Source: Bacteroidota bacterium (lineage in GTDB: Bacteria; Bacteroidota; Bacteroidia; Chitinophagales; UBA10324). Taken from it: a stretch of 64,000 nt of DNA. Shown here in pieces: positions 9,589-59,502 of the stretch; positions within the stretch are counted from its first letter, which is position 1, and the number at the start of each line of letters is the position of its first letter. The stretch covers positions 123 through 64,122 of the forward strand of contig JAFDYS010000050.1 in the NCBI GenBank assembly GCA_018267315.1, given 5' to 3'. A program made the position numbers and the translations under genes. A model generated the notes under the pieces. It searched no databases and had not been told where the DNA came from. It saw only the letters and a program-made list of their open reading frames with translations.

Positions 9589-9659
9589 GATTTAGATTTT
9601 TAAGTTGAATCAATAAATAATTTCTGCATGCATGGGATGCAGGGAATGGAAGAGAAAAC

Positions 9660-40783: not shown

Positions 40784-43700
40784 CTATCTCTCAGCCAGCG
40801 CCGCCGATTGATAAACTGTGCGCAGCTGATTTTTTGAATCCGTGATCATCACCTTATCCGTGAGTGATGGAATCACCGCAATCATCTTTGAGTTCTGCGA
40901 CATATATCCGTCACCGATATTCAGATCATACCGGATCCTGCGTCCATCTTTGAGGAAGACATCTGCGGTACGGTCAGTTTGCTCATAGGGAATTTTTTCC
41001 GAAGGCACGCCGGTGAGCTGGTAAGCAAACATGGCATTGTTGTTATTCGTGCCGAGTACCACGGGCATCTGATTCTTTCCCACATAAATTACGGCCAGTG
41101 CCTTCGCATCCTTGTCAGATAAAAATCCGCTTTGCTTGCTCGGCAAATAAGCAAAGTTGCCATGACCATCTCCGAGCATCACCTCGCCAATGAATGCATC
41201 ATTGCGCTCTGTTTCTGATTCCTTGCTATAAAAGTTTCCGTGATAGACGAGATCGAGATTACCGTCGCCGTTCACATCATAAACCAGGATGCCGAACATG
41301 CTCGATACCTGCGCCCGCAGCGGCAAGGCCTTAATCGCAAACTTTCCGTTGCCCTGATTTTCGATGTATGAACTGGCCAGTGTTTTAGCTGAGAGGTGAT
41401 ACGCTTTGTCAAGTCCTTTCGGACCATAAATTTCCTGCGTGGTTGACAGGGCGAAACCTGAATAGGTTTTGAATTCCTTGGTGAGAATCGGCATTTCTTC
41501 CGCGCTGTATTGAAGATTCTTCACCGGATATAACTTACCGCCGTTGTAAAATGAAAGCACCACATCTGTGGTTCCGTTATTGTCAAAATCTTTGGCGAAT
41601 AACTCAACGGGCTCCTTATCATTGGGGCAATAGAAACGTGTATTGAGTCCTTCATTGCCGGCCACATAATCAATATCCCCATCGTTATCGAAATCACCGC
41701 TCACAATACTGTTCCACCACCCGGTGGTGTTTTCAAATCCGTATTGTTTCGTCACGTCTTCAAACTTGCCACCGCTGTTTTTCATGAAGGTGATGGGCAT
41801 CCATTCACCGGCGAGCAGCAAATCGAGTTTGCCGTCATTATCAAAATCAGTCCACAGCGCTGAGCAAACCAGTCCGGCCTTATCGAGTGCGGGTGCAACC
41901 TGCGAAGTGACATCGGTAAACTTGCCGCCGTTATTCTGGAGAATGAAGCTGCGGGTGGGTGTCGGATAGCTTTGGGGTTCAATGCGGCCTCCGATGAAGA
42001 GATCAAGATCCCCGTCACCATCATAATCACCCGCCACCACACAGGAGCCGCTGCTGTAACTATCGGGGATGTTTGTTGATGCATCACTGAAATTTCCCTT
42101 GCCATCGTTGATATAGAAATGATCCCGGTAGTTCTTGTCATTATGCTGAAATTCATTTCCACCGGATACCACATATAAATCAGGATCCTTATCACCATCC
42201 GCATCAAAGAGCAACGCACCAAGGCAATCGGCCTGGTTGTTTTTCTCCCAGGGCTGCCCGGTGGTTGATTTGAATTCACCGGAAGCGGTTTGAATGTAAA
42301 GCACCCCGTTCTGCCGCGAAGCGCCGCCTACGAAGAAATCATCGAGCCCGTCGCCATTTACATCGCCCACGGCCAGCCCGGGCCCGAAGTAGCTGTTCTT
42401 TTCAGGTAGCAGCAGTTCTCGTTTGAAGTCGTCATACTGGTTCTCGCGATGGACGAAATCAATCTTAAGCTTGTCTGTCACGTTGACGAATAATGGCTTC
42501 GGTTTTTCTTCCGCCGCTGATTTTGTATGGGCATCACTGTGCTTCAGAATATAATTATGATCAGCTTGGAGATTTTCCAGCACCTGTGTTTTGCCATCGA
42601 GCCAGGTGACCACCGCCTTGTCCACTGCTGCGGCATCACCCAGTCCGAAGTGAATAAAGTTTTCTGAAGTGGATTGGTACCCGCGCACGATATGATGCGT
42701 TTGATACTGCATTCCGTTTTTAGTGTAGATGCGAATCTCCGACCCGATGCCCTTGTCATTCTGCTGCGGGCCCTGCAGGGTGAATGAGATGAAATGGTTG
42801 CCGTTCATCTGCCGGGCATTGTTGCGGTAAATGAATGGTGATTCTTCGGTGTTGGATGCAACGATGTCGAGATCGCCATCGTTATCAAAATCGGCAAATG
42901 CCGCACCATGAGTGATGGTTGGCTGAAAGAAGCCCCACTCTTCGGTAACCCGCTTAAAGGTGAGGTCGCCGTTATTCTTAAACATCACGTTTGGGTCTTT
43001 CAGCTTCTTCTTATTGATGATGCCGGCAATCTTGTTAAACATCACGCTGTCACCGCGGCGGGTGGCATCGCGCAGCCCCTGCACCAGTTCCCGTTCATCA
43101 ATATTGAAGGTTTTATAGTACCCGTTGGAAACAAAAATGTCCTGGTAGCCATCGTTATCAAAGTCAACCATCAGCGGCGACCACGACCATTCTGAAGCAT
43201 CCACGCCGGCGAGACAACCGATTTCCGAGAACGTGCCGTTGCCGTTATTCAGTTGAAGCATGTTGCGGACATACTGATAGTGGTATCCGCTGGAGACCAT
43301 GTTGTTGAATTCAGAGCGTCGCTGCGCCAGCATGAACGAGCGGCGCATGTATGACTTATCGAACTTCATGTCCACCACCATCAGGTCAGGCAAGCCGTCG
43401 TTGTTTACATCACCCACATCAGCGCCCATGCCGAACAGGGAAGTTTTCTTCAGCACATCGCGGGTCACTTCCTTGAATGTGCCGTTACCCTGGTTCAGGA
43501 AGAAATAGTCGTACATGGCAAAATCATTGGCCACATACAAATCCGGCCAGCCGTCATCATTGAAATCGGCAACCGTACAACTTAAGCTGTAGCCGTGTGT
43601 GTTGATGCCGGCCTGCTTCGATACATCGGTGAACTTGCCATTGTCATTGCGGTAGAGCTTGTCACTTTGATTGGTTCCCTGCTCAATTTTCTCCAGGTTG

Positions 43701-44392
43701 TTGAACCGAAGTTTTTCCACCCAGTCCGTCGGGTGATTGGCGAGAAACAAATCCAGGTCGCCGTCTTTGTCATAGTCAAAGAAGTTAGCCATGATGTGAT
43801 AAGAACCCGCAGCATCAATGCCGTATTCCTTGGCCCGCTCCGTGAATGTGCCGTTGCCGTTGTTTACATAGAGCAGGTTGCTGAGTGAATCTTTCCAGCG
43901 TGAACGGCACACATAAATATCATCGTACCCGTCGCCATTGATGTCAACAATGGAAACTCCGGTGCTCCAGCCCTTATTCTTCTGCAGGATGCCGGCTTCA
44001 GCACTTACGTCACGGAATTTCAGATTCCCTTCGTTGATGAAGAGTTTGTCAGGAACAATATTTCCTGTGAAGTACAGGTCGGGCAGCGAGTCGCCGTTGG
44101 CATTCAGCACGGCAACGCCGGCACCGTTGTAAAAATAGTTGTACTGGTTATTGTCATTGCGCATCCGGAAACCCACATCATTTGAAAATCGGAGTCCGGT
44201 GGATTTGTCACTGAGTATGTCGAACATTTTGCCGCTCGGTTTGTCAAGCGGATCGAATTTGGTGGAATCGTACGTGGGAAAATCAACTACGGTGAGAGCG
44301 GCATTCTTGTAATTGCCGCTGCACGACCACAGCAACTGACTTCCGACTATTGCTACGAGAATAAAGGCCGGTGATATGATTCTTCTCTTCAT
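40784..44392 (-). CDS. CRTAC1-like lipoprotein: two FG-GAP/VCBS propeller regions with UnbV/ASPIC-type domains
   Basis: I chose the internal Met (MKRRIISPAFILVAIVGSQLLWSC). There are many DxDxDG loops (DINGDGYDD, DYDKDGDLD, DFDNDGDLD). UnbV/ASPIC-like block GIGSEIRIYTKNGMQYQTHHIVRGYQSTSENFIHFGLG...VTWLDGKTQ at mid-protein, and a second similar block near the C-terminus (NIGDGYMSQNS). Confidence 0.8.
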   Translation of the reverse strand: MKRRIISPAFILVAIVGSQLLWSCSGNYKNAALTVVDFPTYDSTKFDPLDKPSGKMFDILSDKSTGLRFSNDVGFRMRNDNNQYNYFYNGAGVAVLNANGDSLPDLYFTGNIVPDKLFINEGNLKFRDVSAEAGILQKNKGWSTGVSIVDINGDGYDDIYVCRSRWKDSLSNLLYVNNGNGTFTERAKEYGIDAAGSYHIMANFFDYDKDGDLDLFLANHPTDWVEKLRFNNLEKIEQGTNQSDKLYRNDNGKFTDVSKQAGINTHGYSLSCTVADFNDDGWPDLYVANDFAMYDYFFLNQGNGTFKEVTRDVLKKTSLFGMGADVGDVNNDGLPDLMVVDMKFDKSYMRRSFMLAQRRSEFNNMVSSGYHYQYVRNMLQLNNGNGTFSEIGCLAGVDASEWSWSPLMVDFDNDGYQDIFVSNGYYKTFNIDERELVQGLRDATRRGDSVMFNKIAGIINKKKLKDPNVMFKNNGDLTFKRVTEEWGFFQPTITHGAAFADFDNDGDLDIVASNTEESPFIYRNNARQMNGNHFISFTLQGPQQNDKGIGSEIRIYTKNGMQYQTHHIVRGYQSTSENFIHFGLGDAAAVDKAVVTWLDGKTQVLENLQADHNYILKHSDAHTKSAAEEKPKPLFVNVTDKLKIDFVHRENQYDDFKRELLLPEKNSYFGPGLAVGDVNGDGLDDFFVGGASRQNGVLYIQTASGEFKSTTGQPWEKNNQADCLGALLFDADGDKDPDLYVVSGGNEFQHNDKNYRDHFYINDGKGNFSDASTNIPDSYSSGSCVVAGDYDGDGDLDLFIGGRIEPQSYPTPTRSFILQNNGGKFTDVTSQVAPALDKAGLVCSALWTDFDNDGKLDLLLAGEWMPITFMKNSGGKFEDVTKQYGFENTTGWWNSIVSGDFDNDGDIDYVAGNEGLNTRFYCPNDKEPVELFAKDFDNNGTTDVVLSFYNGGKLYPVKNLQYSAEEMPILTKEFKTYSGFALSTTQEIYGPKGLDKAYHLSAKTLASSYIENQGNGKFAIKALPLRAQVSSMFGILVYDVNGDGNLDLVYHGNFYSKESETERNDAFIGEVMLGDGHGNFAYLPSKQSGFLSDKDAKALAVIYVGKNQMPVVLGTNNNNAMFAYQLTGVPSEKIPYEQTDRTADVFLKDGRRIRYDLNIGDGYMSQNSKMIAVIPSLTDKVMITDSKNQLRTVYQSAALAER

Positions 44393-44420
44393 TACAAATC
44401 TTCTGTTTGAACTGATCCTG

Positions 44421-47400
44421 TTATTTTGAAGCGAGGGCACTGTTTTCAAATGCCACGCGCTGCTGATTTTTGTCGTCGGTTACCACAATCTTTTCTACCA
44501 ACTCGGGCACAAAGGAAATGGTAAGCGATCCCTGCGAAAGGTATCCCGAACCCACATTCACTTCCTGCCGCTCCGTACGTCCGTCGCGGTAATAAATAAG
44601 AGCGAAGCGATCATGCTGCGTGAGTGTGAGCTTATGCTGCGTATTCTTTATCATTTCAAAAGCGAACATCGAATCATTGTTGTTCGTACCCAGAATGACG
44701 GGATGCTCTTCCTTACCAAGGTGAATTAAGGCCAGCGCCTTGGCATCCTTATGACTGAAGAACCCGCTCTCCTCAGCCGTGAGCGGCCTGAAGTTTCCTT
44801 TACCGTCGCCCAGCATGGTGATGCCGATGCAGGCATCCTGCTTCTCCGTTTCAGTTTCGGTGGAATAGAAATTACCATGCGCAACGATGTCAAGATTCCC
44901 GTCTCCGTTCACATCAGTAGCCAGCATGCCGTAGATGCAGGAGAACTGCGCTTTCATCGGTAATTCGGACGGCGTGAAGGTGCCATCGCCATTGTTGCGG
45001 AAATAAGTTGATGCCAGCGTTTTGGCTGTCAGGTGCATGGCTTTGGTAAGGGCTTCTTTCCCGAAAATTTCATTGGTGGTGGCCAATGCAAACTGTTTGT
45101 AGAGCGGAAACTTCTCGGCAATGGAAGGAATTTCTTCCGCCATCGTGAGCCGGGTTTTTACCGGATACGGTTTGCCGAAGTTGTAAACCGACATCAGCAA
45201 ATCCATCGTTCCGTTTTTGTCAAAGTCATCGCAATACAATTCAACGGGCTGATCTTTGGTGGGCTGATAGTAGCGGGAATTGAGGCCTTCATTTCCGGCC
45301 ACGTAATCCATGTCTCCGTCATTATCAAAGTCGCCGGCGATAATGCTGTTCCACCATCCGGTAGTTTCAGCAAGCCCGGCCTCTGATGTCACTTCCACCA
45401 GTTTGCCGCCTGTGTTTTTGAAAATTCTGAGCGGCGACCATTCACCGGCAATCATGAGATCCATCTTGCCGTCATTGTTATAATCCGTCCAGATGGATGA
45501 GCAGGTTAATCCGCCACTGACCAGATCGGGCGCCACTTCTTTAGTGACATCAACGAACTTGCCCTTGTCATTGCGAAGGATGGCTGAAAGGGCGGGCATC
45601 GGATAATTGGCCGGCACCACCCTGCCTCCCACGAATAAATCGAGATCGCCATCGCCATCGAAATCGCCGGCCGTTACACAGGAACCGCTGGAGCGTTCGT
45701 CAGGCAGCGCGTCGGATGCTTTAGTGAAATTACCCTTGCCATCATTGAGGTACAGGTAATCAACAAGCAACGGATCATCTTTCTTGAACTCATTTCCACC
45801 TGAAACAGAATACAGGTCAAGGTCGCCGTCCTGATCCGCATCGAAGAAGAGTACGCCGAGTATTTCGGAGTTGTCATCTTTCTGCCATGCCTGGTTCTGT
45901 GCTTTCACAAATTTTTTATCAGTTGTTTGCAGGTACAAAGCGCCGGAGCTGCGGGTGGCGCCGCTCACAAAGAAATCTTCGAGCCCGTCGCCATTCACAT
46001 CGGCCACCGCGAGGCCCGGGCCGTAACGGCTGAGTTTATGAGGAAGCAGAATTTCCTTCTTGAAGTCTTCGTATTCATTTTCGACATGGACGTAGTCAAC
46101 ACCAAGTTTTTTGGTAGCGTCAGTGAAGAGGGGTTCGGCATCCTGCTTCCATTTGAATTTGGCATTGGTGGCATTCTTATGCTCGAGAGTGATCACCTGA
46201 TTGGGCTTAACATTCGTGAGTTCCTGCGATTTACCATCCAGCCATTCAATGGCTACGCGATATAGTGTGTCATCCTTCGCCAATCCGAAGTGAACCAGGT
46301 TCTGCGAAGTGGATTGATATCCGCGCACGATGTGATGCTGCACCATCTGCATTCCGCTCTTTGACCAGATGTAAACCTTGGCTCCTATCCCTTCCAGGTT
46401 ATTCTCATAACCCTTCAGTTTGAATTCAACCCAGTTGTTGCCCACCACGCTGTTTTCATTATTGCGATAGACGAGTGCGCTGATTTCGTGATTGCTCACT
46501 ACGATGTCCATATCGCCGTCATGATCCAGATCAGCGAGCGCCGCACCGTAGGAAATGGTGGGATAGTTTATGCCCCAGTTCTCCATTTCACGGGTGAATT
46601 GATAATTGCCGTTGTTTTTGAATGCATAATTCACGGCCTTGAGTTTCTTTTTACTCACCATCTTATACAGCTTGTTGTAAGCAGCGCTGTCGCCGCGGCG
46701 TGTGGCATCGCGCATGGCCTGGTACAATTCGCGCTCATCCACATTGAGCCAGCGATAATATCCGTTAGGGATGAAAATATCTTTCATGCCATCATTATCG
46801 AAGTCGCAGAACATGGGACCCCATGACCAGTCGGTGGCATCCACCTGGGCCAGGTTGGCGATTTCAGAAAAAGTGTTGTTACCGTTATTGATCTGCAGCG
46901 TGTTTTTCACATACTGATAGTGATAGCCGCTCGTGATCATGTTGTTGAATTCATTGCGGCGCAAACCAAGAGCAAAAGAGCGGCGCAGGTAGGAATGATC
47001 GAACCGCATGTCCGCCGTTACGATATCCTGGTACCCGTCATTGTCCACGTCAGCAATGTCAACACCCATGGAGAACATAGATGTTTTGCCGAGGTAGTCG
47101 GCAGACATTTCTTTGAACGTGCCGTTCTTCTGGTTGATGTAGAGGTAGTCGTACATCGCGAAATCATTACAGCCGTACACGTCGAGGTAGCCGTCATTAT
47201 TCACGTCGGCAGCACACACAGCCAACCCGTAGCCGTGATTATTGATACCGGCTTTCTTGGAGATATCAACGAAGTGCCCGTTGTCATTCCGGTAAAAGCG
47301 ATCGCTCTGATTGGTTCCCTTCTCCACTTTCTCGAGATTGTTGAAGCGCATGCGCTCCACGTAATCCGTCGGGTGGTTCTTCACATAAAGATCCATGTCG

Positions 47401-48023
47401 CCGTCATTATCGTAGTCAAAAAAAACAGCGCCCATGGAGTAGCAATCGGGGCAGTCAATGCCGTATTCCTTTGCGCGTTCAGTATAGGTGCCATCGCCGT
47501 TGCTCACATAAAACAGGTGCGCCAGCGAATCTTTCCAGCGCGAACGAAGCACATAAATATCATCGAGGCCGTCGTTATTGATATCAACGAGCGACACGCC
47601 GGTGCTCCATCCTTTGTTTTTGCGCAAGATGCCGGCCTTGTCCGACACACTTTCGAATTTCATGTTCCCTTCGTTCACATACAATTCATCGGGCACGAGG
47701 TTGCCGGTGAAATACAAATCCGGCAGCGAATCGTTATTGTAATTCAGCACGGCCACACCACCGCCGTTGTAGTAGTTCACATAAAGATTGTTGTCCTGCA
47801 TGAAGCCGAACTGTACGGCATTCAAAAAGTCAATGCCGGTGCTCTTGGCTGAGAGCAGGTCAAACATTTTGCCTGAGGGCACATCGGGTAAATTGAATTT
47901 GGTACTGTCCGGCGGCGGGAAATCAAAATTCTTCTTGTATGCACTCTCATAATTGGTGCAGGCTGAAACGGCAAGCGTCAGCAGTATCAATACACTTTTT
48001 GCCCGTGATTTGAAATCTTTCAT
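44421..48023 (-). CDS. CRTAC1-like lipoprotein, paralogue of 40784..44392
   Basis: Lipoprotein signal LILLTLAVSAC. Collinear with the downstream paralogue over its full length (same FG-GAP loops, GIGAKVYIWSKSGMQMVQHHIVRGYQSTSQNLVHFGL, C-terminal NVGSGYLSQGS). 28-nt gap to the next gene. Confidence 0.8.
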   Translation of the reverse strand: MKDFKSRAKSVLILLTLAVSACTNYESAYKKNFDFPPPDSTKFNLPDVPSGKMFDLLSAKSTGIDFLNAVQFGFMQDNNLYVNYYNGGGVAVLNYNNDSLPDLYFTGNLVPDELYVNEGNMKFESVSDKAGILRKNKGWSTGVSLVDINNDGLDDIYVLRSRWKDSLAHLFYVSNGDGTYTERAKEYGIDCPDCYSMGAVFFDYDNDGDMDLYVKNHPTDYVERMRFNNLEKVEKGTNQSDRFYRNDNGHFVDISKKAGINNHGYGLAVCAADVNNDGYLDVYGCNDFAMYDYLYINQKNGTFKEMSADYLGKTSMFSMGVDIADVDNDGYQDIVTADMRFDHSYLRRSFALGLRRNEFNNMITSGYHYQYVKNTLQINNGNNTFSEIANLAQVDATDWSWGPMFCDFDNDGMKDIFIPNGYYRWLNVDERELYQAMRDATRRGDSAAYNKLYKMVSKKKLKAVNYAFKNNGNYQFTREMENWGINYPTISYGAALADLDHDGDMDIVVSNHEISALVYRNNENSVVGNNWVEFKLKGYENNLEGIGAKVYIWSKSGMQMVQHHIVRGYQSTSQNLVHFGLAKDDTLYRVAIEWLDGKSQELTNVKPNQVITLEHKNATNAKFKWKQDAEPLFTDATKKLGVDYVHVENEYEDFKKEILLPHKLSRYGPGLAVADVNGDGLEDFFVSGATRSSGALYLQTTDKKFVKAQNQAWQKDDNSEILGVLFFDADQDGDLDLYSVSGGNEFKKDDPLLVDYLYLNDGKGNFTKASDALPDERSSGSCVTAGDFDGDGDLDLFVGGRVVPANYPMPALSAILRNDKGKFVDVTKEVAPDLVSGGLTCSSIWTDYNNDGKMDLMIAGEWSPLRIFKNTGGKLVEVTSEAGLAETTGWWNSIIAGDFDNDGDMDYVAGNEGLNSRYYQPTKDQPVELYCDDFDKNGTMDLLMSVYNFGKPYPVKTRLTMAEEIPSIAEKFPLYKQFALATTNEIFGKEALTKAMHLTAKTLASTYFRNNGDGTFTPSELPMKAQFSCIYGMLATDVNGDGNLDIVAHGNFYSTETETEKQDACIGITMLGDGKGNFRPLTAEESGFFSHKDAKALALIHLGKEEHPVILGTNNNDSMFAFEMIKNTQHKLTLTQHDRFALIYYRDGRTERQEVNVGSGYLSQGSLTISFVPELVEKIVVTDDKNQQRVAFENSALASK

Positions 48024-48344: not shown

Positions 48345-50648
48345 ATGTCAAAGAGAATATTACTCGCACTCGGTGTGCTTTTAGTTGCCGGAGTAGTTGC
48401 AATTTTTTTATGGAAGCGCAGCAAGATTGAAAAAATGATGAGTGAAAATGAGGTGCCGAAGTACACCAGCACCACCATGCCCCAGATCTATTACGAGATC
48501 GTGGACAACATGGATACCACGCTGCTCTATTCCAGAAATGAGCTCATGATACCATACCTGGAATGGAGGGTCAAAGCAAATCCTGACGATCTCAATCTGC
48601 AATTCGAGTTGGGTATTCAAAACATTTTCTACGGAACAACGGAGAAAGGGATACAGATTCTTGAAGCGCTGGAAAAGAATCCGAAGTTCATGAATGATGA
48701 AAAGAATAAGGAGAAGAAAGGCAAAGAAACAAGCTGGTCAACCCTGGATTCACTCGAGCAGTTCATTGCTTTGGGTTACCTGCGGCTGGGCGAACAATCC
48801 AATTGCATCAATAATCACAATGATGAATCATGTGTGTTCCCCATCTCAGGTGGCGGCGTTCATACCATAAAAACGCCGGTTGAAAATGCCATTACCCGTT
48901 ATCTGAAAATAATTGAAAAAGACCCGCATGATTACCTCTCCATTTGGCTGCTCAATGTGGCCTGCCAGGCCAATGGAAGTGTTCCGCCGGAAGTGCCGAA
49001 AGAATTAATCATACCGGCCAGCCGCATTCCTAATGAATATAACATCAAGCGCTTTAACGACATCGCCGTGGATCTCGGCGTAGATAACACCGGCGATGCC
49101 GGCGGCATTGCGCTGGATGATTTTGACAACGACGGCTACAACGATATCATTGATGGATCCTCCCGGCTGAAAGGACAGATCCGCTATTTTCATAACAACG
49201 GCGACGGCACCTTCAGCGACTGGACCGAGAAATCAAAACTCACCGGCGCCTTTGAAGGATTGGGCATGATGCAGTTTGATTACAACAACGACGGAAATAT
49301 GGATTTCCTCGTCACCCGCGGCGGCTGGAAAGCCAAGGCAGGTTTTCTTCCCCCTTCCCTGTACCGTAATAATGGCGACGGCACATTCACTGATGTAACC
49401 ATTGAAGCCGGGCTGCTCCATTTCCTGCCTTCGCAAACGGCCGAAGCCGCTGACATTGACCTCGACGGTGATCTTGATCTATTTATCGGGCATGAATTCA
49501 ATACCCACAGCAAGCTATACCTCAATAACGGCAACGGAACATTTAAAGATATCACTGCGGAAGCCGGCGTTGACTTTGAAGGATTCATTAAGGGAGTTTC
49601 ATTCGGTGATTACAATAATGACGGCTACCCGGATATTTACCTGAGCGACTTCGGCAATCCTAACCGGCTCTATAAAAACAACGGGCTGAATGAAAATGGA
49701 ATCGTGACCTTCACCAATGTGGCCAAGGAAGCCGGCGTGGAGAATCCCATCTGGAGTTTTCCCTGCTGGTTCTTTGATTACAATAATGACGGGTGGGAAG
49801 ATATTTACATATCGGCCTACAAACCCGGCTACATCATCAACTCATGCCGTGAATTCATGGGTCTGCCCATGGATTCCAATATGTTTCCCCGGTTGTACCG
49901 CAACAATGGCGATGGCACTTTCACCAACGTAGCCAAAGAAACACACATCCAATACGAATCATTTACTATGGGATGCAACTTCGGTGATCTCGATAACGAT
50001 GGCTGGCTCGATTTCTACCAGAGCATCGGTGCGCCGGACTACCGCGCCATTTTCCCGAACCGCATGTACCACAATTTTGAAGGAAAATATTTTCAGGACT
50101 GCACGCTTTCCGGCGGATTCGGACAACTGCAGAAAGGACATGCCGTGGGTTTCTGCGATTTTGATTACGATGGTGACCAGGATATTTATACGGATTTCGG
50201 CGGATTCTTCTATGGAGATGTTTTTCAGAATTCACTCTTTGAAAACCCCGGACATGGCAACCACTGGATCAATGTAAAATTTGAAGGTGTGAAAAATAAT
50301 CACTTCGGCGTGGGGTGCCGGGTGAAACTCACTTTTAAGGATAATGGCACCACCCGCAGCACCTACTTTGACATTGGCAAAGGAGCCAGCTTCGGCAGCA
50401 ACCCCATCCGCCTGCAAGCGGGCGTAGACAAAGCCACGGTGATTGATTCGATGGAAGTGATTTGGCCGGCCGGCAAAGTAAAACAGGTGTTTAAGAACGT
50501 GCCGGTCAATAAAATGTACCTGTGCAAAGAAGGCGCCACGGAATTAACTCCGCTCAGCATCAACTCCATCGTATTCAAAACCATGGAACGCAGAATGGCC
50601 GAAGGTGATTCATCCCTGATGAATATGCACATGCACATGAACATGTAA
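48345..50648 (+). CDS. Membrane-anchored CRTAC1-family protein (FG-GAP/VCBS repeats + UnbV/ASPIC) with a Met/His-rich C-terminal tail
   Basis: N-terminal anchor ILLALGVLLVAGVVAIFLW. DDFDNDGYND, DIDLDGDLD and DYNNDGWED loops. UnbV/ASPIC block GVGCRVKLTF...VIWPAGKVKQ. Terminal MNMHMHMNM. Confidence 0.8.
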   Translation: MSKRILLALGVLLVAGVVAIFLWKRSKIEKMMSENEVPKYTSTTMPQIYYEIVDNMDTTLLYSRNELMIPYLEWRVKANPDDLNLQFELGIQNIFYGTTEKGIQILEALEKNPKFMNDEKNKEKKGKETSWSTLDSLEQFIALGYLRLGEQSNCINNHNDESCVFPISGGGVHTIKTPVENAITRYLKIIEKDPHDYLSIWLLNVACQANGSVPPEVPKELIIPASRIPNEYNIKRFNDIAVDLGVDNTGDAGGIALDDFDNDGYNDIIDGSSRLKGQIRYFHNNGDGTFSDWTEKSKLTGAFEGLGMMQFDYNNDGNMDFLVTRGGWKAKAGFLPPSLYRNNGDGTFTDVTIEAGLLHFLPSQTAEAADIDLDGDLDLFIGHEFNTHSKLYLNNGNGTFKDITAEAGVDFEGFIKGVSFGDYNNDGYPDIYLSDFGNPNRLYKNNGLNENGIVTFTNVAKEAGVENPIWSFPCWFFDYNNDGWEDIYISAYKPGYIINSCREFMGLPMDSNMFPRLYRNNGDGTFTNVAKETHIQYESFTMGCNFGDLDNDGWLDFYQSIGAPDYRAIFPNRMYHNFEGKYFQDCTLSGGFGQLQKGHAVGFCDFDYDGDQDIYTDFGGFFYGDVFQNSLFENPGHGNHWINVKFEGVKNNHFGVGCRVKLTFKDNGTTRSTYFDIGKGASFGSNPIRLQAGVDKATVIDSMEVIWPAGKVKQVFKNVPVNKMYLCKEGATELTPLSINSIVFKTMERRMAEGDSSLMNMHMHMNM

Positions 50649-50774: not shown

Positions 50775-52064
50775 ATGTATGGCTTGAAAGGAATTTTACC
50801 AACGTTCATTACCGCTTTCCTCCTCGCAATTTTCCCAAAACATTCAGCCGGTCAATTCACGCTAAGCGCTGAACTGCGCATCCGCCCTGAAGTACTTCAC
50901 GGTTATCGCACCCTGCCCGACACCGACTCGAGGGTTGCCGTGTTTGTTGATCAGCGCGCCCGGATCAACGCCCTTTATTCCAAAGAAAAATTTCAGGTTT
51001 ACGCCAGTATTCAGGAAGCCCGAACGTGGGGTGAACAGGCGCAGCTTGCTGACGAGCCAACGATCGGGGTTCATGAATTTTGGGGACAATATTTCTTTCA
51101 TAAGAATCTTTCATTGAAGGCGGGACGACAGGAATTACGGTATGACGATGAACGCCTGCTGGGTAATGCGGATTGGTACGCACAGGGCAGAAGCCACGAT
51201 GCGGCCGTGCTTAAATATGCCAATGCCAAAGGTTTCAAACTGGATGCGGGAGGAGCATTCAATCAGGCGACGCAGAATAATTTCGGCACCTATTATCCTG
51301 TGAACTCCTACAAAACACTGGAGTATTTGTGGGCCAACAAGGTTTGGAAAAATTCGCACCAGGAATTGAATGTTTCCGCAATGGTCATTGGCGACGGAAC
51401 CCAAGAGGCCGATTCAACAGGCATCACCACACGGGTGACTATTGGTTTCAACTCTGATTTTACGCGCGAAAAATTTGCGCTTCACCTCGCAGTTTATGAT
51501 CAACTGGGGCAGGATCCGGCTAAGCGGGATATCAGTGCTTACATGATATCGGCATATGGCACTGTAAATCCTTTTGAATACTGGAAATTCACTCTCGGCA
51601 TAGATTACCTATCCGGCACCGATCAGCTCAACAGTGAAAATGCCGATAAGCAAAAAACCTTCTTCACTCTCTATCCGTCAAATCATGCCTTCTATGGCAT
51701 CGCCGATTACTTTCTCAATATTCCCAATGACACGAAGAACGGAGGATTGATTGATGCCTTCTTCAAGGCCAACTGCACCATGGATAAATTCAAGATCAAC
51801 GGAGCATTTCACATGCTGGCTCTGCAAAACAATGTGGTGGTTGCTTCCAGCCCTGAAACGGCGCTGGATAAAAACCTGGGAACAGAAATTGATGTGTGGG
51901 GCTCTTACAATTTTGAACCCGAGGTGAGCATCATGCTGGGTGGTTCGCTCATGTTCGGAACAGAATCCATGGAAGCCATCAAGGGCGGCGACTCCGGCAT
52001 TCCGGGAAAATGGATTTATGCGGGCATTACCTTTAAGCCCGTTTTTTTCAGTTCACAAAAATGA
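50775..52064 (+). CDS. Alginate-export (AlgE-like) family outer-membrane beta-barrel
   Basis: Signal peptide. LRIRPE near the N-terminus and the GRQELRYDDERLLGNADWYAQGRSHDAAVLKY motif typical of the Alginate_exp family. Alternating beta-strand pattern throughout. Confidence 0.65.
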   Translation: MYGLKGILPTFITAFLLAIFPKHSAGQFTLSAELRIRPEVLHGYRTLPDTDSRVAVFVDQRARINALYSKEKFQVYASIQEARTWGEQAQLADEPTIGVHEFWGQYFFHKNLSLKAGRQELRYDDERLLGNADWYAQGRSHDAAVLKYANAKGFKLDAGGAFNQATQNNFGTYYPVNSYKTLEYLWANKVWKNSHQELNVSAMVIGDGTQEADSTGITTRVTIGFNSDFTREKFALHLAVYDQLGQDPAKRDISAYMISAYGTVNPFEYWKFTLGIDYLSGTDQLNSENADKQKTFFTLYPSNHAFYGIADYFLNIPNDTKNGGLIDAFFKANCTMDKFKINGAFHMLALQNNVVVASSPETALDKNLGTEIDVWGSYNFEPEVSIMLGGSLMFGTESMEAIKGGDSGIPGKWIYAGITFKPVFFSSQK

Positions 52065-52196: not shown

Positions 52197-52204
52197 TACA
52201 TTTG
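52197..52204 (+). promoter_or_regulatory. Candidate -7 box TACATTTG
   Basis: Matches TAnnTTTG, 45 nt upstream of the ATG at 52249, within a 184-nt intergenic gap. Confidence 0.3.
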
Positions 52205-52248: not shown

Positions 52249-53637
52249 ATGAATAAACCAATTGTTGCAGTTATGCTGACTGCGATTCTGGTGTCGTCTG
52301 CCATCTCAGGATGCAAGCAGACAAGCAGCCCGGGCAGTGCGGGTTCGCTTTACAACTCCAAGTCGAAACCGGCCACCGAGTTTGATAACAAGATGGCGCT
52401 TGCGTGGGTTGATCTGCTTTGTGACCAGGTAAGATTTCAGCGCGTAGGCCCGCCTCCGGCAGCACGGGCAATGGGTTACCTGGGTGTGGCCATGTATCAG
52501 TCCGTGGTAGGTGGCATTCCTGACGGCCATTCGCTGGAAGGTCAGTTAAAGGATTTAAAGAATCTGCCCAAGCCCGACCCGAACGCAGAATACGATTGGC
52601 CGACGGTATTGAATAACGCCGCATTTCTCGTTTGTGATGAAGGGCTGGCCCGTTTCATGGGACCTAACACACCCAACCTCAATAACCTCGTTGCTAAGAT
52701 GAATCACTTGCGCGACAGCGTGCTGGCCAATGCCGACGTGTTCAATCGCTCCAAAGAATATGGTACGCAACTCGGTAATGCCATTGTTGATTACATGAAA
52801 ACGGATAACTTCGATTACACCCGCGAGCATAACGAATATGAATCCCCTTCCCGCACCGGACATCCGGATTGGTATGAGGTGACTGACATTGACAAAACGC
52901 CGTTCGAACCGTTCTGGGGCACCCTGCGTCCCCTCGGACTTGACACTACGGAATTATGCCTGAGCAAACCTACCATTCCCTACAGCGCCGATCCGAATTC
53001 AGATTTTTACAAGTTCGCCTCTAAACTCTACGGTATTGACACCTCCTTCAGTGAGTATGACCGTATCACTTCCCTTTACTGGGCGGATGATCCGGTAGAA
53101 ACATTCACACCACCGGGGCACTGGATGAAGATTGCCAAGCAACAGGTGCGCAACCATAATTACAACCTGGCTCAAACCTGTGAGCTCTATTGTTACCTCG
53201 GTATGGCAGAATACAATGCCGGTATTGCGGTTTGGAAAATCAAGTATCAGGTGAATCTGCTTCGCCCGAAAACCTACATCGCTGAAGTGATGAATAAGCC
53301 GGATTGGGAGCCGTATCTCGAAACTCCTCCGTTCCCCGAATATCCTTCGGGTCACAGCGGATTCTCCGGCGCCGCCTCTTCCATTCTCACCAGCTATTTC
53401 GGCGACACAGAATTTACTGACAGCACAAACCTGGTGATTGGATTACTCCCGCGTCATTTCAAGTCATTCAATGCCGCGGCGGAAGAAGCCGCCTGGTCGC
53501 GCATGTTTGGTGGCATTCACTACGAAGCAGCTATTAAGGATGCCAAAGTAATGGGTGATTGCCTGGCGCAAAACCTGATGAAGAAAATCAAGCTGGGCAG
53601 CGGACAGACTGCTGAAAATGCTGAAACTAAAAAGTAA
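52249..53637 (+). CDS. Vanadium-dependent haloperoxidase / PAP2-superfamily lipoprotein
   Basis: Lipoprotein signal LVSSAISGC. K-x6-RP (KYQVNLLRP), PSGH (EYPSGHSG) and SR-x5-H (SRMFGGIHYEAAIKD) motifs in the canonical order. Confidence 0.7.
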   Translation: MNKPIVAVMLTAILVSSAISGCKQTSSPGSAGSLYNSKSKPATEFDNKMALAWVDLLCDQVRFQRVGPPPAARAMGYLGVAMYQSVVGGIPDGHSLEGQLKDLKNLPKPDPNAEYDWPTVLNNAAFLVCDEGLARFMGPNTPNLNNLVAKMNHLRDSVLANADVFNRSKEYGTQLGNAIVDYMKTDNFDYTREHNEYESPSRTGHPDWYEVTDIDKTPFEPFWGTLRPLGLDTTELCLSKPTIPYSADPNSDFYKFASKLYGIDTSFSEYDRITSLYWADDPVETFTPPGHWMKIAKQQVRNHNYNLAQTCELYCYLGMAEYNAGIAVWKIKYQVNLLRPKTYIAEVMNKPDWEPYLETPPFPEYPSGHSGFSGAASSILTSYFGDTEFTDSTNLVIGLLPRHFKSFNAAAEEAAWSRMFGGIHYEAAIKDAKVMGDCLAQNLMKKIKLGSGQTAENAETKK

Positions 53638-53668
53638 CTCCTCACTCAATCATCTAAAGAATTGTAAC

Positions 53669-54211
53669 ATGAATAAGATCATTAGCTTCTTTGCCATAGC
53701 GCTTCTCATCGGCGCCGGCACTGCCCAGGCACAGGTTCTCATGAAAGAAATGCTTACCCAGGAGCAGAAAGGAACGCTGGAAAAGAGCGTGAACTGGCCG
53801 GGAAAGAAAATTTACTACACGCTTAAATACGATAGCTCGCGGGCCTATTCTTATGAAACCTATAGCACCACGCGCTATTACTATACCCTCATGATCGCTG
53901 ATAATGCCGGCATGGCCAATGCCATCAAATTGCCCGGCATGGTTCGCGACCTGGTAATCACTTCGTATTTCGAATTCTATTTCAACAACGGTTCGGAAAC
54001 CAAGACGTTTACCCTGACTTACGACAAAAACAACAAGTGGTACCGCATCAAGTTTGCCCCGCAATGGGGCTGCCGCCGCGAAGAGTTATGGAAGCGCGTG
54101 AATGATATCAAGAGCTACTCGGATTTGCTCACGAGTATGGTGGGGCAAATGGATAATAATCTGATACTCGATTGCTACCGCGGACATGAAGGAAGGATAA
54201 TGACGCAGTAG
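53669..54211 (+). CDS. Small secreted hypothetical protein
   Basis: I chose the internal ATG, which gives the signal peptide MNKIISFFAIALLIGAGTAQAQ. No recognisable motif. It is the last gene before the terminator. Confidence 0.5.
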   Translation: MNKIISFFAIALLIGAGTAQAQVLMKEMLTQEQKGTLEKSVNWPGKKIYYTLKYDSSRAYSYETYSTTRYYYTLMIADNAGMANAIKLPGMVRDLVITSYFEFYFNNGSETKTFTLTYDKNNKWYRIKFAPQWGCRREELWKRVNDIKSYSDLLTSMVGQMDNNLILDCYRGHEGRIMTQ

Positions 54212-55160: not shown

Positions 55161-55766
55161 TCAGAATTGATAGCCCGATTGAAGCAGGTCTTCTTCCGTA
55201 TCAATGTCAGTTAATTCAGGAAGAAGTTTGTAGGACCCGTTCATGTTGCGCAAATCGGTGAGGGTATCGTGCAGCACCTCATCACTGCTCCACTTTTTGT
55301 TCTTGAACAAAGCGGCATGCAGAGCCGTCATGCCAATGAGGTAATACCCGCCGTCATGCGTAGGGCCGATTACAAAATTGTTTTTGGGAATGGAATCAAA
55401 CGCCTCACGTAAAATATCCGTGGTGAGTTCAAAACAATCACTGCCAATGATCACCACCTTTTTATAGCCGCGCTGAAATGCATTCTTAAACGCATTAAGC
55501 ATGCGCTTGCCCAGGTCACTTCCTTCCTGAACCATCTTTTGATATTCGTTCATATCCCACACATCGCCTTCAATGATTTCATCAGAATAAAAAACGGCCT
55601 TGTCAACACCGAGCGCACTGGTTACTCGATGCGTATGCTGAATCAGCGCATTGTAAATCTCAAGGGCTTTGTCCGTACCCAGTGTTTTGGCCAGCCGGGT
55701 TTTTACTTTCCCCGGTACCGGATTCTTCACGAAAATCATCAACAGTTCTTGTCCCATATTACTCAT
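55161..55766 (-). CDS. DUF2064 / TIGR04282-family putative glycosyltransferase
   Basis: IFVKNPVPGKVKTRLA and GPTHDGGYYLIG motifs typical of the family. Confidence 0.7.
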   Translation of the reverse strand: MSNMGQELLMIFVKNPVPGKVKTRLAKTLGTDKALEIYNALIQHTHRVTSALGVDKAVFYSDEIIEGDVWDMNEYQKMVQEGSDLGKRMLNAFKNAFQRGYKKVVIIGSDCFELTTDILREAFDSIPKNNFVIGPTHDGGYYLIGMTALHAALFKNKKWSSDEVLHDTLTDLRNMNGSYKLLPELTDIDTEEDLLQSGYQF

Positions 55767-56487
55767 TCAATGACCAATCGTACTCAAGGTACTTAATCGG
55801 GGCCTGTGCCGAAATTTTTACGATTGAATATTGATTCAGAAAATCAATCAGGGTTCCTTTTTTGGTAAAATCACCCTGGTACCATTCGAAAATCTTCGAG
55901 ATCTGAATGGAGGTTGCCGAGATTTTATTTCTCGAAGGATCATTGATAAATCCTTTTGCTGCCTGCGTTAGCTGGGCGTTAAGTTTTTCGGCTGTATATG
56001 CTTCATTGAGCATTTTGGGGCAGGATGCTGAAGCGCAATTGAGAGCGAAATGAATGCGCGGCTCATTGAATTGCTTCCGAATGATATCCTGCTCAATTTG
56101 ATCAAGCGAATACATTTTGCCCCCGATAGAGATGAACATGGTGTTCCACACTTTTCCTCCGTCAATATCGAGGATGCTTTTTACCGGGTAATGATCCAAT
56201 ATCGTTTTTACCGTGAAGGCATTGTATGCATTAATCCAGTAAGCGAGTTTTTCTGATTCGCTCCAGGTGGCAGCAGGCGCATGTGCACTCAGCGACTTGA
56301 GGTAGGCATCAAACCTGGACCTGTCGTTCATGATTCCGCGGTAATTCACCTGCCCGGAAGCACCCACATATTTATGCAACAACTCGTTCCAGGGTTCATG
56401 CAATGATGCAGGGGGTTGACCATGTGAAACGGAAACAGAAAGAAAGAAAAGCAGAAAGAGATGAGAAAATGATTGGGTAACGTGCAT
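55759..56487 (-). CDS. DUF547 domain protein (secreted)
   Basis: I chose the internal Met, which gives a signal peptide (MHVTQSFSHLFLLFFLSVSVSHG). WINAYNAFTV and IHFALNCASASCP motifs of DUF547. 8-nt overlap with the downstream gene. Confidence 0.7.
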   Translation of the reverse strand: MHVTQSFSHLFLLFFLSVSVSHGQPPASLHEPWNELLHKYVGASGQVNYRGIMNDRSRFDAYLKSLSAHAPAATWSESEKLAYWINAYNAFTVKTILDHYPVKSILDIDGGKVWNTMFISIGGKMYSLDQIEQDIIRKQFNEPRIHFALNCASASCPKMLNEAYTAEKLNAQLTQAAKGFINDPSRNKISATSIQISKIFEWYQGDFTKKGTLIDFLNQYSIVKISAQAPIKYLEYDWSLNE

Positions 56488-56612
56488 TTTGTATTGATCT
56501 CGCAAATAAAATGAATTCCTACCATGCCAAAAAATTGTGCCACAGTTGTAAAAGGGTGTGAGCAATGTTTTACATCTTGCAATCGCAATAACACCTGTCA
56601 TCTGATTTTTCA

Positions 56613-57788
56613 ATGCCGACATACCTGTCTCACCTGAAATCAAAATTGCCCCAGACCGGCACCACCATTTTCACCATCATGTCCGGTTTGGCCAATGAGG
56701 TGGGCGCGATCAATCTCTCTCAGGGATTCCCTGATTTTTTGTGCGATGAAAAACTGATTAAACTGGTGGAACAATTCATGCGGAAAGGGCTGAACCAGTA
56801 TGCGCCCATGCCCGGTATAGTGCCGTTGCGTGAACGCATAGCAGAGAAAACGGAATCGCTCTATAAAACAAAATACAATCCCGATACAGAAATTACGATA
56901 ACAGCCGGCGGCACAGAAGCCATTTACGCCGCCATTACTTCTGTGATCAGCGAAGGAGATGAAGTGATCATTTTTGAGCCGGCATATGATTGTTATGCCC
57001 CGTCCATTGAATTAAACAAGGGTGTTCCCATTTATGTGGAGTTACAGCCGCCGGATTATTTAATTGACTGGCAGGCGGTGAAGAAACTGATCAGCCAGCG
57101 CACCAAAATGATCATGATCAATTCACCGCATAACCCCACGGGTACGGTGCTCTCTGCCAATGACCTTAAACAACTGGAATCCATCACGCAGAACAGCGAC
57201 ATACTCATCCTGAGTGACGAGGTGTATGAGCACATCATCTTTGATGGGCGGCAACATCAAAGTGTTTTGGCAAGTCCGCAGTTGGCTGAACGGTCTTTTG
57301 TGGTGTTTTCATTTGGAAAAACCTATCATAACACCGGATGGAAAATGGGTTACTGCCTCGCTCCTGCGGAACTAATGAAGGAATTCCGTAAAGCGCATCA
57401 GTTCATCGTCTTTTCAGCGAACACGCCCATCCAATATGCTTTTGCCGAAATGATGAAAGAACCCGCTCATTATCTCGGGCTCAAAGATTTTTACCAGCAG
57501 AAAAGAGATGCGTTCAATGCACTAATTAAGGAAACGCCGTTAGCGCTCAAGCCCGCATCAGGCAGTTATTTTCAGTGCGTGAGTTATGATTCATTCACTG
57601 ATGAAAAGGATTATGATTTCGCCGTGCGTTTAACCCGCGAAGCGGGTGTGGCGGCCATACCTGTGTCGGCATTCTATCACCACTCCAATGATTACAAGAT
57701 GCTGCGCTTCTGCTTTGCGAAAGAAAATGAAACCCTGGAGAAAGCGGCGGAACGGTTGATGGAGTTCTTCAAAAAAGAAAGCAGGTAA
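56613..57788 (+). CDS. Class I/II pyridoxal-phosphate aminotransferase (YbdL-like)
   Basis: INLSQGFPDF, NSPHNPTG and SFGKTYHNTGWKMGY (PLP lysine) motifs. Confidence 0.85.
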   Translation: MPTYLSHLKSKLPQTGTTIFTIMSGLANEVGAINLSQGFPDFLCDEKLIKLVEQFMRKGLNQYAPMPGIVPLRERIAEKTESLYKTKYNPDTEITITAGGTEAIYAAITSVISEGDEVIIFEPAYDCYAPSIELNKGVPIYVELQPPDYLIDWQAVKKLISQRTKMIMINSPHNPTGTVLSANDLKQLESITQNSDILILSDEVYEHIIFDGRQHQSVLASPQLAERSFVVFSFGKTYHNTGWKMGYCLAPAELMKEFRKAHQFIVFSANTPIQYAFAEMMKEPAHYLGLKDFYQQKRDAFNALIKETPLALKPASGSYFQCVSYDSFTDEKDYDFAVRLTREAGVAAIPVSAFYHHSNDYKMLRFCFAKENETLEKAAERLMEFFKKESR

Positions 57789-58032: not shown

Positions 58033-58497
58033 ATGCCGGTGAAATTAGATTTTGACAAACTGGATCTCCAGATAATCGGGGAAATGATGAAGGATGCTTC
58101 CGCCTCTTACAAGGTGCTCGGGAAAAAATTATTTGTCTCTGCGGGCACTATTCATGTGCGAATGAAAAAGCTGCAGCGCCTCGGCGTACTCAGTGGCTCC
58201 AGCTACCACATCAACCTGAAGAAGATCGGCTATGATATCACCGCCTTCATCGGCATCTACCTGGAGAAGAGTTCACTTTATGCCACGGTGGCCAAAGATC
58301 TCAAGAAGATTCCCGAAATCGTGCGGCTCAATTATACCACCGGCAACTACAGCATGTTTGCCGAGATTGTTTGCCGCGATATGGAACACCTTCGCCTGGT
58401 GTTGTATGATAAGCTGCAGCATGTGAGAGGAATTGAACGGACGGAAACACTCATTTCGCTTGATGAAAGTTTTAAGCGAAGCGCTGAGATCTTATAA
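58033..58497 (+). CDS. Lrp/AsnC-family transcriptional regulator
   Basis: N-terminal HTH (LDLQIIGEMMKDASASYKVLGKKLFVSAGTIHVRMKKL) and a C-terminal RAM-like domain. Length is 154 aa. Confidence 0.85.
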   Translation: MPVKLDFDKLDLQIIGEMMKDASASYKVLGKKLFVSAGTIHVRMKKLQRLGVLSGSSYHINLKKIGYDITAFIGIYLEKSSLYATVAKDLKKIPEIVRLNYTTGNYSMFAEIVCRDMEHLRLVLYDKLQHVRGIERTETLISLDESFKRSAEIL

Positions 58498-59430
58498 CTC
58501 CGAAGCCGGGGATTGCATCAGTTGCCACAGCGCCCCTTCTTTAAGGGCATATGCTGAACGGGTGATGTGATGAACGTGTGCTGATTCCACAACGTAACCG
58601 GCGAGAATGGAAGCCGGCACAATCGTATCTACGCGGTACCAGATCAGCCCCTTCATATTCACGCGCTCTTCCCGGTTGGCGCGAATCACTTTATCACAGA
58701 AAATGTAGAAGTCACGCAATGAAATTTCAGTGCAGGTGGAACCGGCATCCAGGGGACGGCTATAAATATTTTCTGCAATCATCTGCGCCATGGTATCGAA
58801 AGAACCCGATGCCCCGATAAGCCGCTTCACCGGATATTGCTTGAGTTGCAACATCAGCGGCTCGAGTTCATGTTGCAGGTAATGAATCAGGTTGACCTGC
58901 TCAATGGCGCTGATAGGTTCACGCTGATGAAAGCGCTGCCGCAACACCGATCCGCCAACAGGAAAACTCTGCTTCCAGAAAACTGTATTCTTGCTAGCAA
59001 TAATGAATTCGGTGCTGCCGCCGCCGATATCCATGATAAGGGCCGGATGTTCATCCAACCTCACAGCCCTTCTCACGCCCTGGTAAATCAATTCCGCTTC
59101 TTCATCTCCGCTAATTTTTTTCAAATCCATCGGAATGATTTCCTTCACCGCGCGTACAAACTCCTCACCATTGGAAGATTTACGTATGGCGGCAGTACCG
59201 AAACCTATGATGCGTTCCGGTTTCAGATCATCAATCACGGTTTTGTATTTCCTGATCTGCTCTATGCCACGTTGAAAAGCAAGATCACCGATGCGCTCCA
59301 CCCCCTCTTCTCCCAGTGAAACAAATTCTTCGGCCCGGAACAATACATGAAATGATTGATCACGCCCGATGTCAGCAATCAGGAGATGAAACGTGTTTGT
59401 TCCGAGATCAAGTACAGCAACCCGTGACAT
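58492..59430 (-). CDS. Ppx/GppA-family phosphatase
   Basis: I chose the internal Met. VAVLDLGTNTFHLLIAD and MDIGGGSTEF motifs. Confidence 0.85.
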   Translation of the reverse strand: MSRVAVLDLGTNTFHLLIADIGRDQSFHVLFRAEEFVSLGEEGVERIGDLAFQRGIEQIRKYKTVIDDLKPERIIGFGTAAIRKSSNGEEFVRAVKEIIPMDLKKISGDEEAELIYQGVRRAVRLDEHPALIMDIGGGSTEFIIASKNTVFWKQSFPVGGSVLRQRFHQREPISAIEQVNLIHYLQHELEPLMLQLKQYPVKRLIGASGSFDTMAQMIAENIYSRPLDAGSTCTEISLRDFYIFCDKVIRANREERVNMKGLIWYRVDTIVPASILAGYVVESAHVHHITRSAYALKEGALWQLMQSPASEL

Positions 59431-59502
59431 GTGCTTTTCCAATACCGGTTTGCTTCCGGTGCTCTGCAAAGAAAATCCTTTCTTTGAAGCAAAATCATCT
59501 TC

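Follow-up and report, generated by a model that had tools for sequence, protein, structure and literature searches.

A short-loop vanadium haloperoxidase-family lipoprotein of Bacteroidota linked to a small secreted protein and CRTAC1-like propeller proteins

The locus studied here raises the question whether a 462-residue lipoprotein carrying active-site motifs common to PAP2 acid phosphatases and vanadium-dependent haloperoxidases (VHPOs) is a genuine haloperoxidase-family member, and which of the proteins encoded around it belong with it. The window, i.e. the whole analysed stretch of 64,000 nucleotides of Bacteroidota DNA, contains the gene together with the features collected in Table 1. 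An initial sequence-only reading had placed three motifs in canonical order within the last third of the protein, and this arrangement was confirmed for residues 332–424: KYQVNLLRP corresponds to K332-x6-R339-P340, EYPSGHSG includes P366-S367-G368-H369, and SRMFGGIHYEAAIKD includes S417-R418-x5-H424. The same reading had described the motif set as full, which holds for K-x6-RP, PSGH and SR-x5-H but not for SRx5Hx3D, the longer form of the motif in PAP2 phosphatases, whose final Asp is replaced by Ala428 in the window protein and by Ala in most family members.

The proposed lipobox is likewise present, as the amino-terminus MNKPIVAVMLTAILVSSAISGC matches the bacterial lipoprotein pattern with Cys22 as the lipobox Cys (...LVSSAISG-C22), and lipobox-like amino-termini are frequent across the VHPO family. 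Acidic residues following the lipobox Cys constitute the Bacteroidetes lipoprotein export signal. The residues at this point of the window protein, CKQTSS, include no acidic ones, which hints that the lipoprotein may face the periplasm.

Table 1 Features of the VHPO locus, in window coordinates.
Feature	Position	Strand	Basis
CRTAC1-like lipoprotein, 1221-aa ORF	40784..44449	-	Pfam; amino-terminus MKRRIISPAFILVAIVGSQLLWSC
CRTAC1-like lipoprotein, 1200 aa; two propellers flanking UnbV_ASPIC; lipobox LAVSAC	44421..48023	-	Pfam
CRTAC1-like protein, 767 aa; amino-terminal TM anchor, one FG-GAP_3 propeller, UnbV_ASPIC	48345..50648	+	Pfam
Alginate_exp-type outer-membrane beta-barrel (porin)	50775..52064	+	Pfam E=1.2e-11
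TAcaTTTG, Bacteroidetes-type -7 box, 45 nt upstream of VHPO ATG	52197..52204	+	motif conservation
VHPO-family lipoprotein, short-loop clade, 462 aa	52249..53637	+	ORF with ATG start, 4CIT match, AF2, Foldseek
Signal peptide and lipobox (AISG/C22)	52249..52314	+	read from sequence
Short-loop region D280-H291 (WADDP-VETFTPPGHW)	53086..53121	+	alignments
W329-x2-K332-x6-R339-P340: motif 1 and halide-site Trp	53233..53268	+	conservation, 110 sequences
F362-P-E-Y-P-S367-G368-H369: motif 2 and halide-site Phe	53332..53355	+	conservation, 110 sequences
S417-R418-x5-H424: motif 3; H424 = predicted vanadate-binding His	53497..53520	+	conservation, 110 sequences
Small secreted partner protein, 180 aa; two invariant Cys (C135, C169)	53669..54211	+	conserved linkage

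Only PAP2 exceeded its Pfam threshold on the VHPO protein, with 36 bits at a cutoff of 27.2, VCPO_2nd matched below threshold, and NCBIfam yielded zero matches for the VHPO, porin and CRTAC1-like (CRT) proteins of the window. A phmmer search of the PDB sequences returned the Zobellia galactanivorans enzyme 4CIT as the best match (E=7.6e-55, residues 58–449 on 49–449), followed by the Curvularia chloroperoxidase at E=1.6e-6, and the first acid phosphatase at E=0.008. With a profile built from 32 family members (A1), the PDB entries retrieved at E<=0.01 were VHPOs only, and 4CIT reached 4e-108. Judged by scores, the window protein therefore falls with the VHPOs and outside the ordinary PAP2 phosphatases (7.6e-55 for 4CIT vs 0.008). 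Among solved structures its nearest relative is the iodoperoxidase of Zobellia, which the sequence-only reading had named for the haloperoxidase branch.

The structure prediction points in the same direction. The AF2 model, built from the A1 alignment, is all-helical with a pLDDT of 88.8 and a pTM of 0.88, and it contains the amino-terminal helical bundle anticipated as a long helical extension. Foldseek placed 4CIT/4USZ on top (TM 0.79–0.81 on the query and 0.88–0.90 on the target, rmsd about 2.5 Å; 4CIT by itself 0.79/0.88 at 2.6 Å), followed by CiVCPO, NapH1, XhnO11 and NapH3 at around E 1e-11 and TM 0.55–0.62; class A acid phosphatases covered the carboxy-terminal bundle only, with a TMq of about 0.3. 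The predicted protein thus combines an amino-terminal bundle with a PAP2-like carboxy-terminal one, as VHPOs do, and K332, R339, S367-G368-H369, R418 and H424 align with the vanadate ligands of Zg-VIPO1 and CiVCPO. Its length, its two bundles and Ala428 set it apart from class A PAP2 acid phosphatases. Taken together, the sequence and model comparisons identify the product as a genuine member of the VHPO family and not an ordinary PAP2 phosphatase. The enzyme family itself is already known and annotated in close relatives (<=75% identity), which bear the NCBI name 'vanadium-dependent haloperoxidase [Chitinophagales bacterium]'. The family is large, with more than 5,000 homologues and, at E<=1e-30, 708 clusters at 50% identity; the near relatives of the window VHPO come from metagenome assemblies.

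To place the protein within the family we used an alignment of 110 sequences, comprising the window protein, 76 genome loci, 31 database matches and Zg-VIPO1 rebuilt from the PDB alignment. All 110 sequences have W329, K332, R339, F362 and H291, 109/110 have S367, H369, R418 and H424, and 104/110 have G368. R418 and H424 align with R410 and H416 of Zg-VIPO1, and W329 and F362, the second-shell pair, presumably represent the Trp350/Phe397 halide site of CiVCPO. The alignment splits into a long-loop group of 64 sequences, which includes Zg-VIPO1 and shows 'FWDCNPYVSVTRGHLMFATKKITPGAHW', and a short-loop group of 46, which includes the window protein with 'YWADDP-VETFTPPGHW'. The short-loop group lacks 12 residues, the position of Tyr263 among them (numbering of the paper; 4CIT chain index +8). 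A neighbour-joining tree computed with the indel columns left out recovered this bipartition with a bootstrap of 73/100. Furthermore, 44/46 short-loop but 0/64 long-loop sequences have Cys at both of the positions of Cys237 and Cys438, a covariation that points to a disulfide particular to this clade and to an oxidising compartment. D281 of the window protein aligns with Asp292 of CiVCPO, a position held by Asn in the long-loop clade.

On this alignment and tree the window protein belongs to an uncharacterised short-loop sister clade of Zg-VIPO1. Tyr263 lies, as we assume, near the Zg-VIPO1 active site, and because the deleted loop carries this residue, the 12-residue deletion is predicted to remodel the active-site rim and hence the pocket. 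The window VHPO lacks the Tyr263 loop (NPYxxxxRGH...), has Val at the Tyr263 position before the deletion, and reads V-W-K-I-K in place of C-W-D-E-K; for these reasons we do not file it as an iodoperoxidase. A second argument leads to the same restraint: part of the VIPO-linked cluster was without a validated member in a 2026 survey, and a Rhodopirellula VHPO with VIPO-like residues proved to be a chloro/bromoperoxidase by experiment (PMC13519999), so that the name iodoperoxidase is not applied to the window protein.

The gene neighbourhood revealed a constant companion, more tightly linked than the CRTAC1-like genes. The sequence-only reading had passed over it, as it had the promoter of the pair and the separate clade of the enzyme. 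Directly downstream of the VHPO gene, a homologue of the small secreted protein was found in 11/11 short-loop Bacteroidota loci, and searching from the small protein identified a VHPO directly upstream in 10/10 metagenome loci with upstream sequence, giving adjacency in 21/21 informative loci overall; 20 further matches to the VHPO and the small protein agreed exactly in the length of their longest contig, consistent with co-location. The small secreted protein is an obligate partner of the VHPO in Bacteroidota. No fewer than 116 clusters at 90% identity make up its family; every one is termed 'hypothetical' and has no Pfam domain, and a match to DUF5367 at only 0.004 was rejected as spurious. 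The mechanical ORF start of the small protein in the window, at 53618, is probably too early. Its AF2 model (pLDDT 85) shows a β-sheet and a carboxy-terminal helix and gave no significant fold match in the PDB. The partner was not found in the Chloroflexi and cyanobacterial short-loop loci nor detected in long-loop loci, and the 'c18' and HmuY-like companions of other clades form separate blastp clusters that jackhmmer started from the small partner did not recover.

TAnnTTTG, the Bacteroidetes -7 consensus, precedes the VHPO start codon by 26–57 nt in 7/7 loci of short-loop Bacteroidota, at a background of 0.05 per 200 nt, whereas a scan for sigma-70 promoters and terminators performed no better than on shuffled sequences. 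Since this box is conserved before the VHPO start in all seven, the VHPO and the small gene appear to form one unit behind a promoter of their own. The porin encoded ahead of this box was considered as a conserved partner and rejected (0/80 genome loci); an Alginate_exp porin lies by the VHPO only in the window and at loci L081 and L099, as an occasional accessory. Genes encoding an H2O2-generating oxidase or a halide or vanadate transporter were not found near the window VHPO. The flanking genes, pheT, PNP, DUF2064, aminotransferase, Ppx and others, are unrelated housekeeping genes.

The second set of neighbours consists of the CRT proteins, which the sequence-only reading had suggested as partners of the enzyme. 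All three in the window exceed the Pfam cutoffs for FG-GAP_3 and UnbV_ASPIC (E=2.7e-87 and E=8e-21 for the 1200-residue protein), two carrying a lipobox and one a TM anchor. For the 1221-residue ORF the true start is likely Met20 at 44392, giving about 1202 residues. Across the genome loci, a CRT-like gene lies within 10 kb of the VHPO gene in 39/80, and its position is specific: immediately upstream (-1) in 29/73 loci and at -2 in 17/64, vs 2/335 at five or more genes away and 4/409 at +2 or further downstream. The typical order in Bacteroidota is TonB receptor, SusD, CRT, CRT, VHPO, and the CRT-VHPO pair extends to Gemmatimonadota, Kapaibacteria, Rhodothermaceae and Longimicrobiales. In the clade of the window protein, two CRT genes of ~1200 residues run divergently from the VHPO gene (L001-L003, L081-L083, L085, L090, L093, L094 and L096), in some of these loci together with a ~770-residue CRT co-directional with the VHPO; this divergent pair was not found at L084 and L086. 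Orthologues of the ~770-residue protein are present in L081, L083 and L002.

Moreover, four proteins from other phyla, each in a separate 50%-identity cluster, join both modules in a single chain: P0226 (1388 aa), P0284 (1110 aa, Myxococcota), P0186 (1000 aa, Caldilineaceae) and P0212 (951 aa). In all four, FG-GAP_3 repeats are followed by UnbV_ASPIC and a carboxy-terminal VHPO domain with intact catalytic motifs, behind a single amino-terminal signal peptide and with a natural linker devoid of an internal signal remnant. The VHPO domains of all four are of the short-loop kind, three of them showing the motif clearly, and the 767-residue window protein aligns with the fused module of P0186/P0212. 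Position-specific synteny across phyla and the four fusions thus bear out the proposed CRT partnership. VHPO-related catalytic domains are also found fused to a lactonase-type propeller, to DUF642 with a T9SS tail, or to a second VHPO domain in tandem. Such fusions to binding or sorting modules would fit an enzyme targeted outside the cytoplasm. A literature search for a VHPO link to CRTAC1, ASPIC, UnbV, FG-GAP or SusD gave nothing relevant.

Haloperoxidase chemistry is the best reading of the window VHPO, and we hold it to be reasonably probable. By homology, the enzyme would be an envelope-anchored lipoprotein of the monomeric two-helical-bundle type known from Zobellia VIPO1, in which vanadate would be bound to His424 and held by Lys332, Arg339, Ser367, Gly368 and Arg418. 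H2O2 would convert this center into peroxovanadate with His369 acting as acid/base, and a halide near Trp329/Phe362 would be oxidised to hypohalous acid in the envelope. We infer the envelope location from the lipobox of the VHPO, the clade-specific Cys pair and the lipoprotein or secreted nature of the partners. The VHPO would be co-transcribed with the small secreted protein from their own promoter and may act alongside the CRT proteins, β-propeller lipoproteins of a Ca-binding type, whose likeliest role is to anchor the catalytic domain to a ligand outside the cell or in the periplasm, or to present such a ligand. More tentatively, and with considerable doubt, we propose that the VHPO, the small partner and the CRT propellers form a previously undescribed envelope machine, in which a propeller-bound extracellular ligand or polymer might be attacked by locally produced hypohalous acid, or in which the propellers might otherwise feed or position the peroxidase.

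Among the alternatives, the one that survives best is a phosphoesterase function in vivo, which we consider unlikely. Here the protein would act as a PAP2-type histidine phosphatase that frees phosphate from an extracellular or periplasmic organophosphate, with the propellers binding the substrate and, in other Bacteroidota, SusC/SusD importing it. The invariant Trp329/Phe362 pair has no obvious role in a phosphatase, the Asp of Hx3D is absent, and both the whole-protein fold and the sequence group with the VHPOs, whose closest characterised member is an active iodoperoxidase. On the other hand, the catalytic set K/R/SGH/R/H is common to PAP2 phosphatases, apo-VCPO traps a phosphate intermediate, and apo-VHPOs can dephosphorylate (title of PDB 3BB0). 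As to genomic context, long-loop genes belong to nutrient-uptake loci of the SusC/SusD type that also contain genes for sugars and glycerol, and an anion-type porin adjoins the VHPO gene in the window, where no Pho-type genes lie nearby. The sugar and glycerol genes beside long-loop members do not help to choose between a peroxidase and a phosphatase. The earlier caveat that sequence alone leaves room for phosphatase activity still holds, as PAP2 phosphatases have the same first-shell residues. What favours the peroxidase is the fold, together with the invariant Trp/Phe pair and the lack of the Hx3D Asp.

We regard as decidedly improbable that the VHPO fold serves a non-halogenating role, be it as a peroxidase of pseudohalides, sulfides or a substrate bound by a partner, as an H2O2 sink, or as an oxyanion-binding or sensing subunit in a complex that includes the small protein and the propellers. 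Repurposing of the fold has a precedent in NapH3, a VHPO homologue that isomerises instead of halogenating. An obligate small partner and fusions to propellers point to a dedicated complex more than to a free HOX generator, and the 12-residue deletion is predicted to remodel the active-site rim. Yet the vanadate-ligand and halide-site residues are strictly conserved in both clades, which is better explained by retained canonical chemistry. That the motifs or the ORF arose by chance or artefact has a negligible probability, being refuted by the match to a solved enzyme (E=7.6e-55), the thousands of homologues, the confident model and the conserved synteny.

With haloperoxidase chemistry as the preferred reading, the novelty lies in the uncharacterised clade and in its conserved three-part module of VHPO, small protein and CRT, which is apparently undescribed. 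We know of no established physiological role for bacterial VHPOs outside natural-product clusters, and to our knowledge the molecular function of the CRTAC1/ASPIC-UnbV family is known in no organism. Synteny across several phyla, fusions and an obligate third component join the two families into a testable module. If the envelope machine exists, it would open a first way into the function of the CRTAC1/ASPIC-UnbV family and assign a physiological role to the many non-marine bacterial VHPOs. The short-loop clade is also a candidate source of haloperoxidase biocatalysts, with a rim that appears remodelled compared to the only solved close relative, and if widespread Bacteroidota VHPOs make hypohalous acid, they would become candidates for the natural halogenation of organic matter.

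Compared with known systems, the window protein shares KX6RP, PSGH and SRX5H and the carboxy-terminal helical-bundle core with the class A acid phosphatases of the PAP2 family (PhoN, PhoC, EB-NSAP). These enzymes, however, have ~220–230 residues in a single bundle without the amino-terminal one, match with a TMq of only ~0.3 and E=0.008, possess the Asp of Hx3D and are not known to have the Trp/Phe pair. The window partners resemble the CRTAC1/ASPIC-UnbV family in combining an FG-GAP_3 propeller with UnbV_ASPIC, the bacterial versions being lipoproteins, often with two propellers. The Curvularia inaequalis chloroperoxidase (1IDQ/1VNC) has the same two-bundle architecture and active-site set, and likewise 'YWA(D/Y)D...TPP' without loop insertion and an Asp at the Asp292 position. 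It differs in being a fungal protein of 609 residues with ~19% identity and a TM of ~0.55, and presumably keeps the Hx3D Asp that the window VHPO lacks. The Rhodopirellula baltica RhobaVHPO (Q7UVW2; PMC13519999) is bacterial, groups with the VIPOs and has the catalytic residues common to them. It is an active haloperoxidase among the relatives of the VIPO group and oxidises Cl- and Br- (PMC13519999), so that the halide scope is not readable from these residues. The closest likeness is to Zg-VIPO1 (4CIT/4USZ), also from Bacteroidota, with the monomeric two-bundle fold, ~33–35% identity over ~400 residues, the same set of vanadate ligands (K, R, S-G-H, R, H) and both the Trp and the Phe; lipoprotein-type amino-termini are frequent in its clade, and CRTAC1-like genes neighbour that clade, too. 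In contrast to Zg-VIPO1, the window VHPO lacks the Tyr263-bearing 12-residue loop and has Asp281 in place of the Asn of the Zg clade, and the Cys237/Cys438 pair and the obligate small downstream partner are found on the window side only.

The mechanically called ORF of the small secreted protein encoded directly downstream of the VHPO gene spans window positions 53618–54211, and its beginning overlaps the stop codon of the VHPO gene. Both its homologues and its signal peptide point to 53669 (MNKIISFF...) as the true start. The family of this small partner comprises at least 116 clusters, all unannotated, and a search for a fold match in the PDB yielded none. At one compared locus, L084, the small-partner gene (9347–10002) is broken over two frames, 9347–9868 and 9793–10002, the cause being a frameshift or an error in the assembly.

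Two of the CRTAC1-like genes are minus-strand ORFs of ~1200 aa each (window 40784–44449 and 44421–48023) with an apparent overlap of 29 nt, which is probably an artefact of a TTG start call. Read from Met20 (44392), the 40784–44449 ORF continues into a signal peptide and lipobox, leaving a gap of 28 nt to its neighbor; with this start, the two ORFs form a tandem paralogue pair. In L084, DUF7948/Por_Secre_tail proteins are found where the CRTAC1-like genes would stand.

An Alginate_exp-type barrel, which may serve as an anion channel accessory, lies beside the VHPO/small-protein pair at only three loci, preceding it at two of them and following it at the third. On the downstream flank of the module, the DUF2064/CofC-like and DUF547 gene pair is conserved, being adjacent to the module in L081 as well; neither this pair nor the Ppx/GppA gene showed an evident link to the VHPO module.

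Flanking genes of the module and further fusions of VHPO-like domains
Feature	Location or protein	Remark
Alginate_exp-type outer-membrane barrel	window 50775-52064; L081:4651-5931; L099:601-1263	adjoins VHPO/small-protein pair
DUF2064/CofC-like + DUF547 gene pair	window 55161-56643 (-)	downstream
Ppx/GppA phosphatase	window 58492-59469 (-)	further downstream
VHPO-like domain + DUF642 + T9SS sorting tail	P0282	
VHPO-like domain + lactonase-type 7-bladed propeller	P0116	
VHPO-like domain + second VHPO domain	P0177	tandem
VHPO-like domain + ~330-aa N-terminal region	P0103/P0106/P0187	region without Pfam domain

Small companions also accompany VHPO-family genes of other clades: a HmuY-like lipoprotein of ~210 aa directly downstream in Kapaibacteria-type loci (L013–L018, L022), and, in six Bacteroidota loci (L019, L043, L045, L048, L056, L062), 'c18', an unannotated protein of ~190 aa encoded immediately upstream. 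Both fall into clusters separate from the small partner of the window.

Within the long-loop clade, genes resembling Zobellia Zg-VIPO1 are embedded amid GH65, a GPH-type MFS transporter, an aquaglyceroporin and GlpK (L026, L034, L044, L047, L051). The GH65 matches 'kojibiose hydrolase' (NF053734, 1110 bits), and the gene set looks like one for alpha-1,2-glucoside or glucosylglycerol utilisation. In the marine Flavobacteriaceae loci L053, L066 and L074, XylB-like kinase and SSS symporter genes precede the Zg-VIPO1-like gene.
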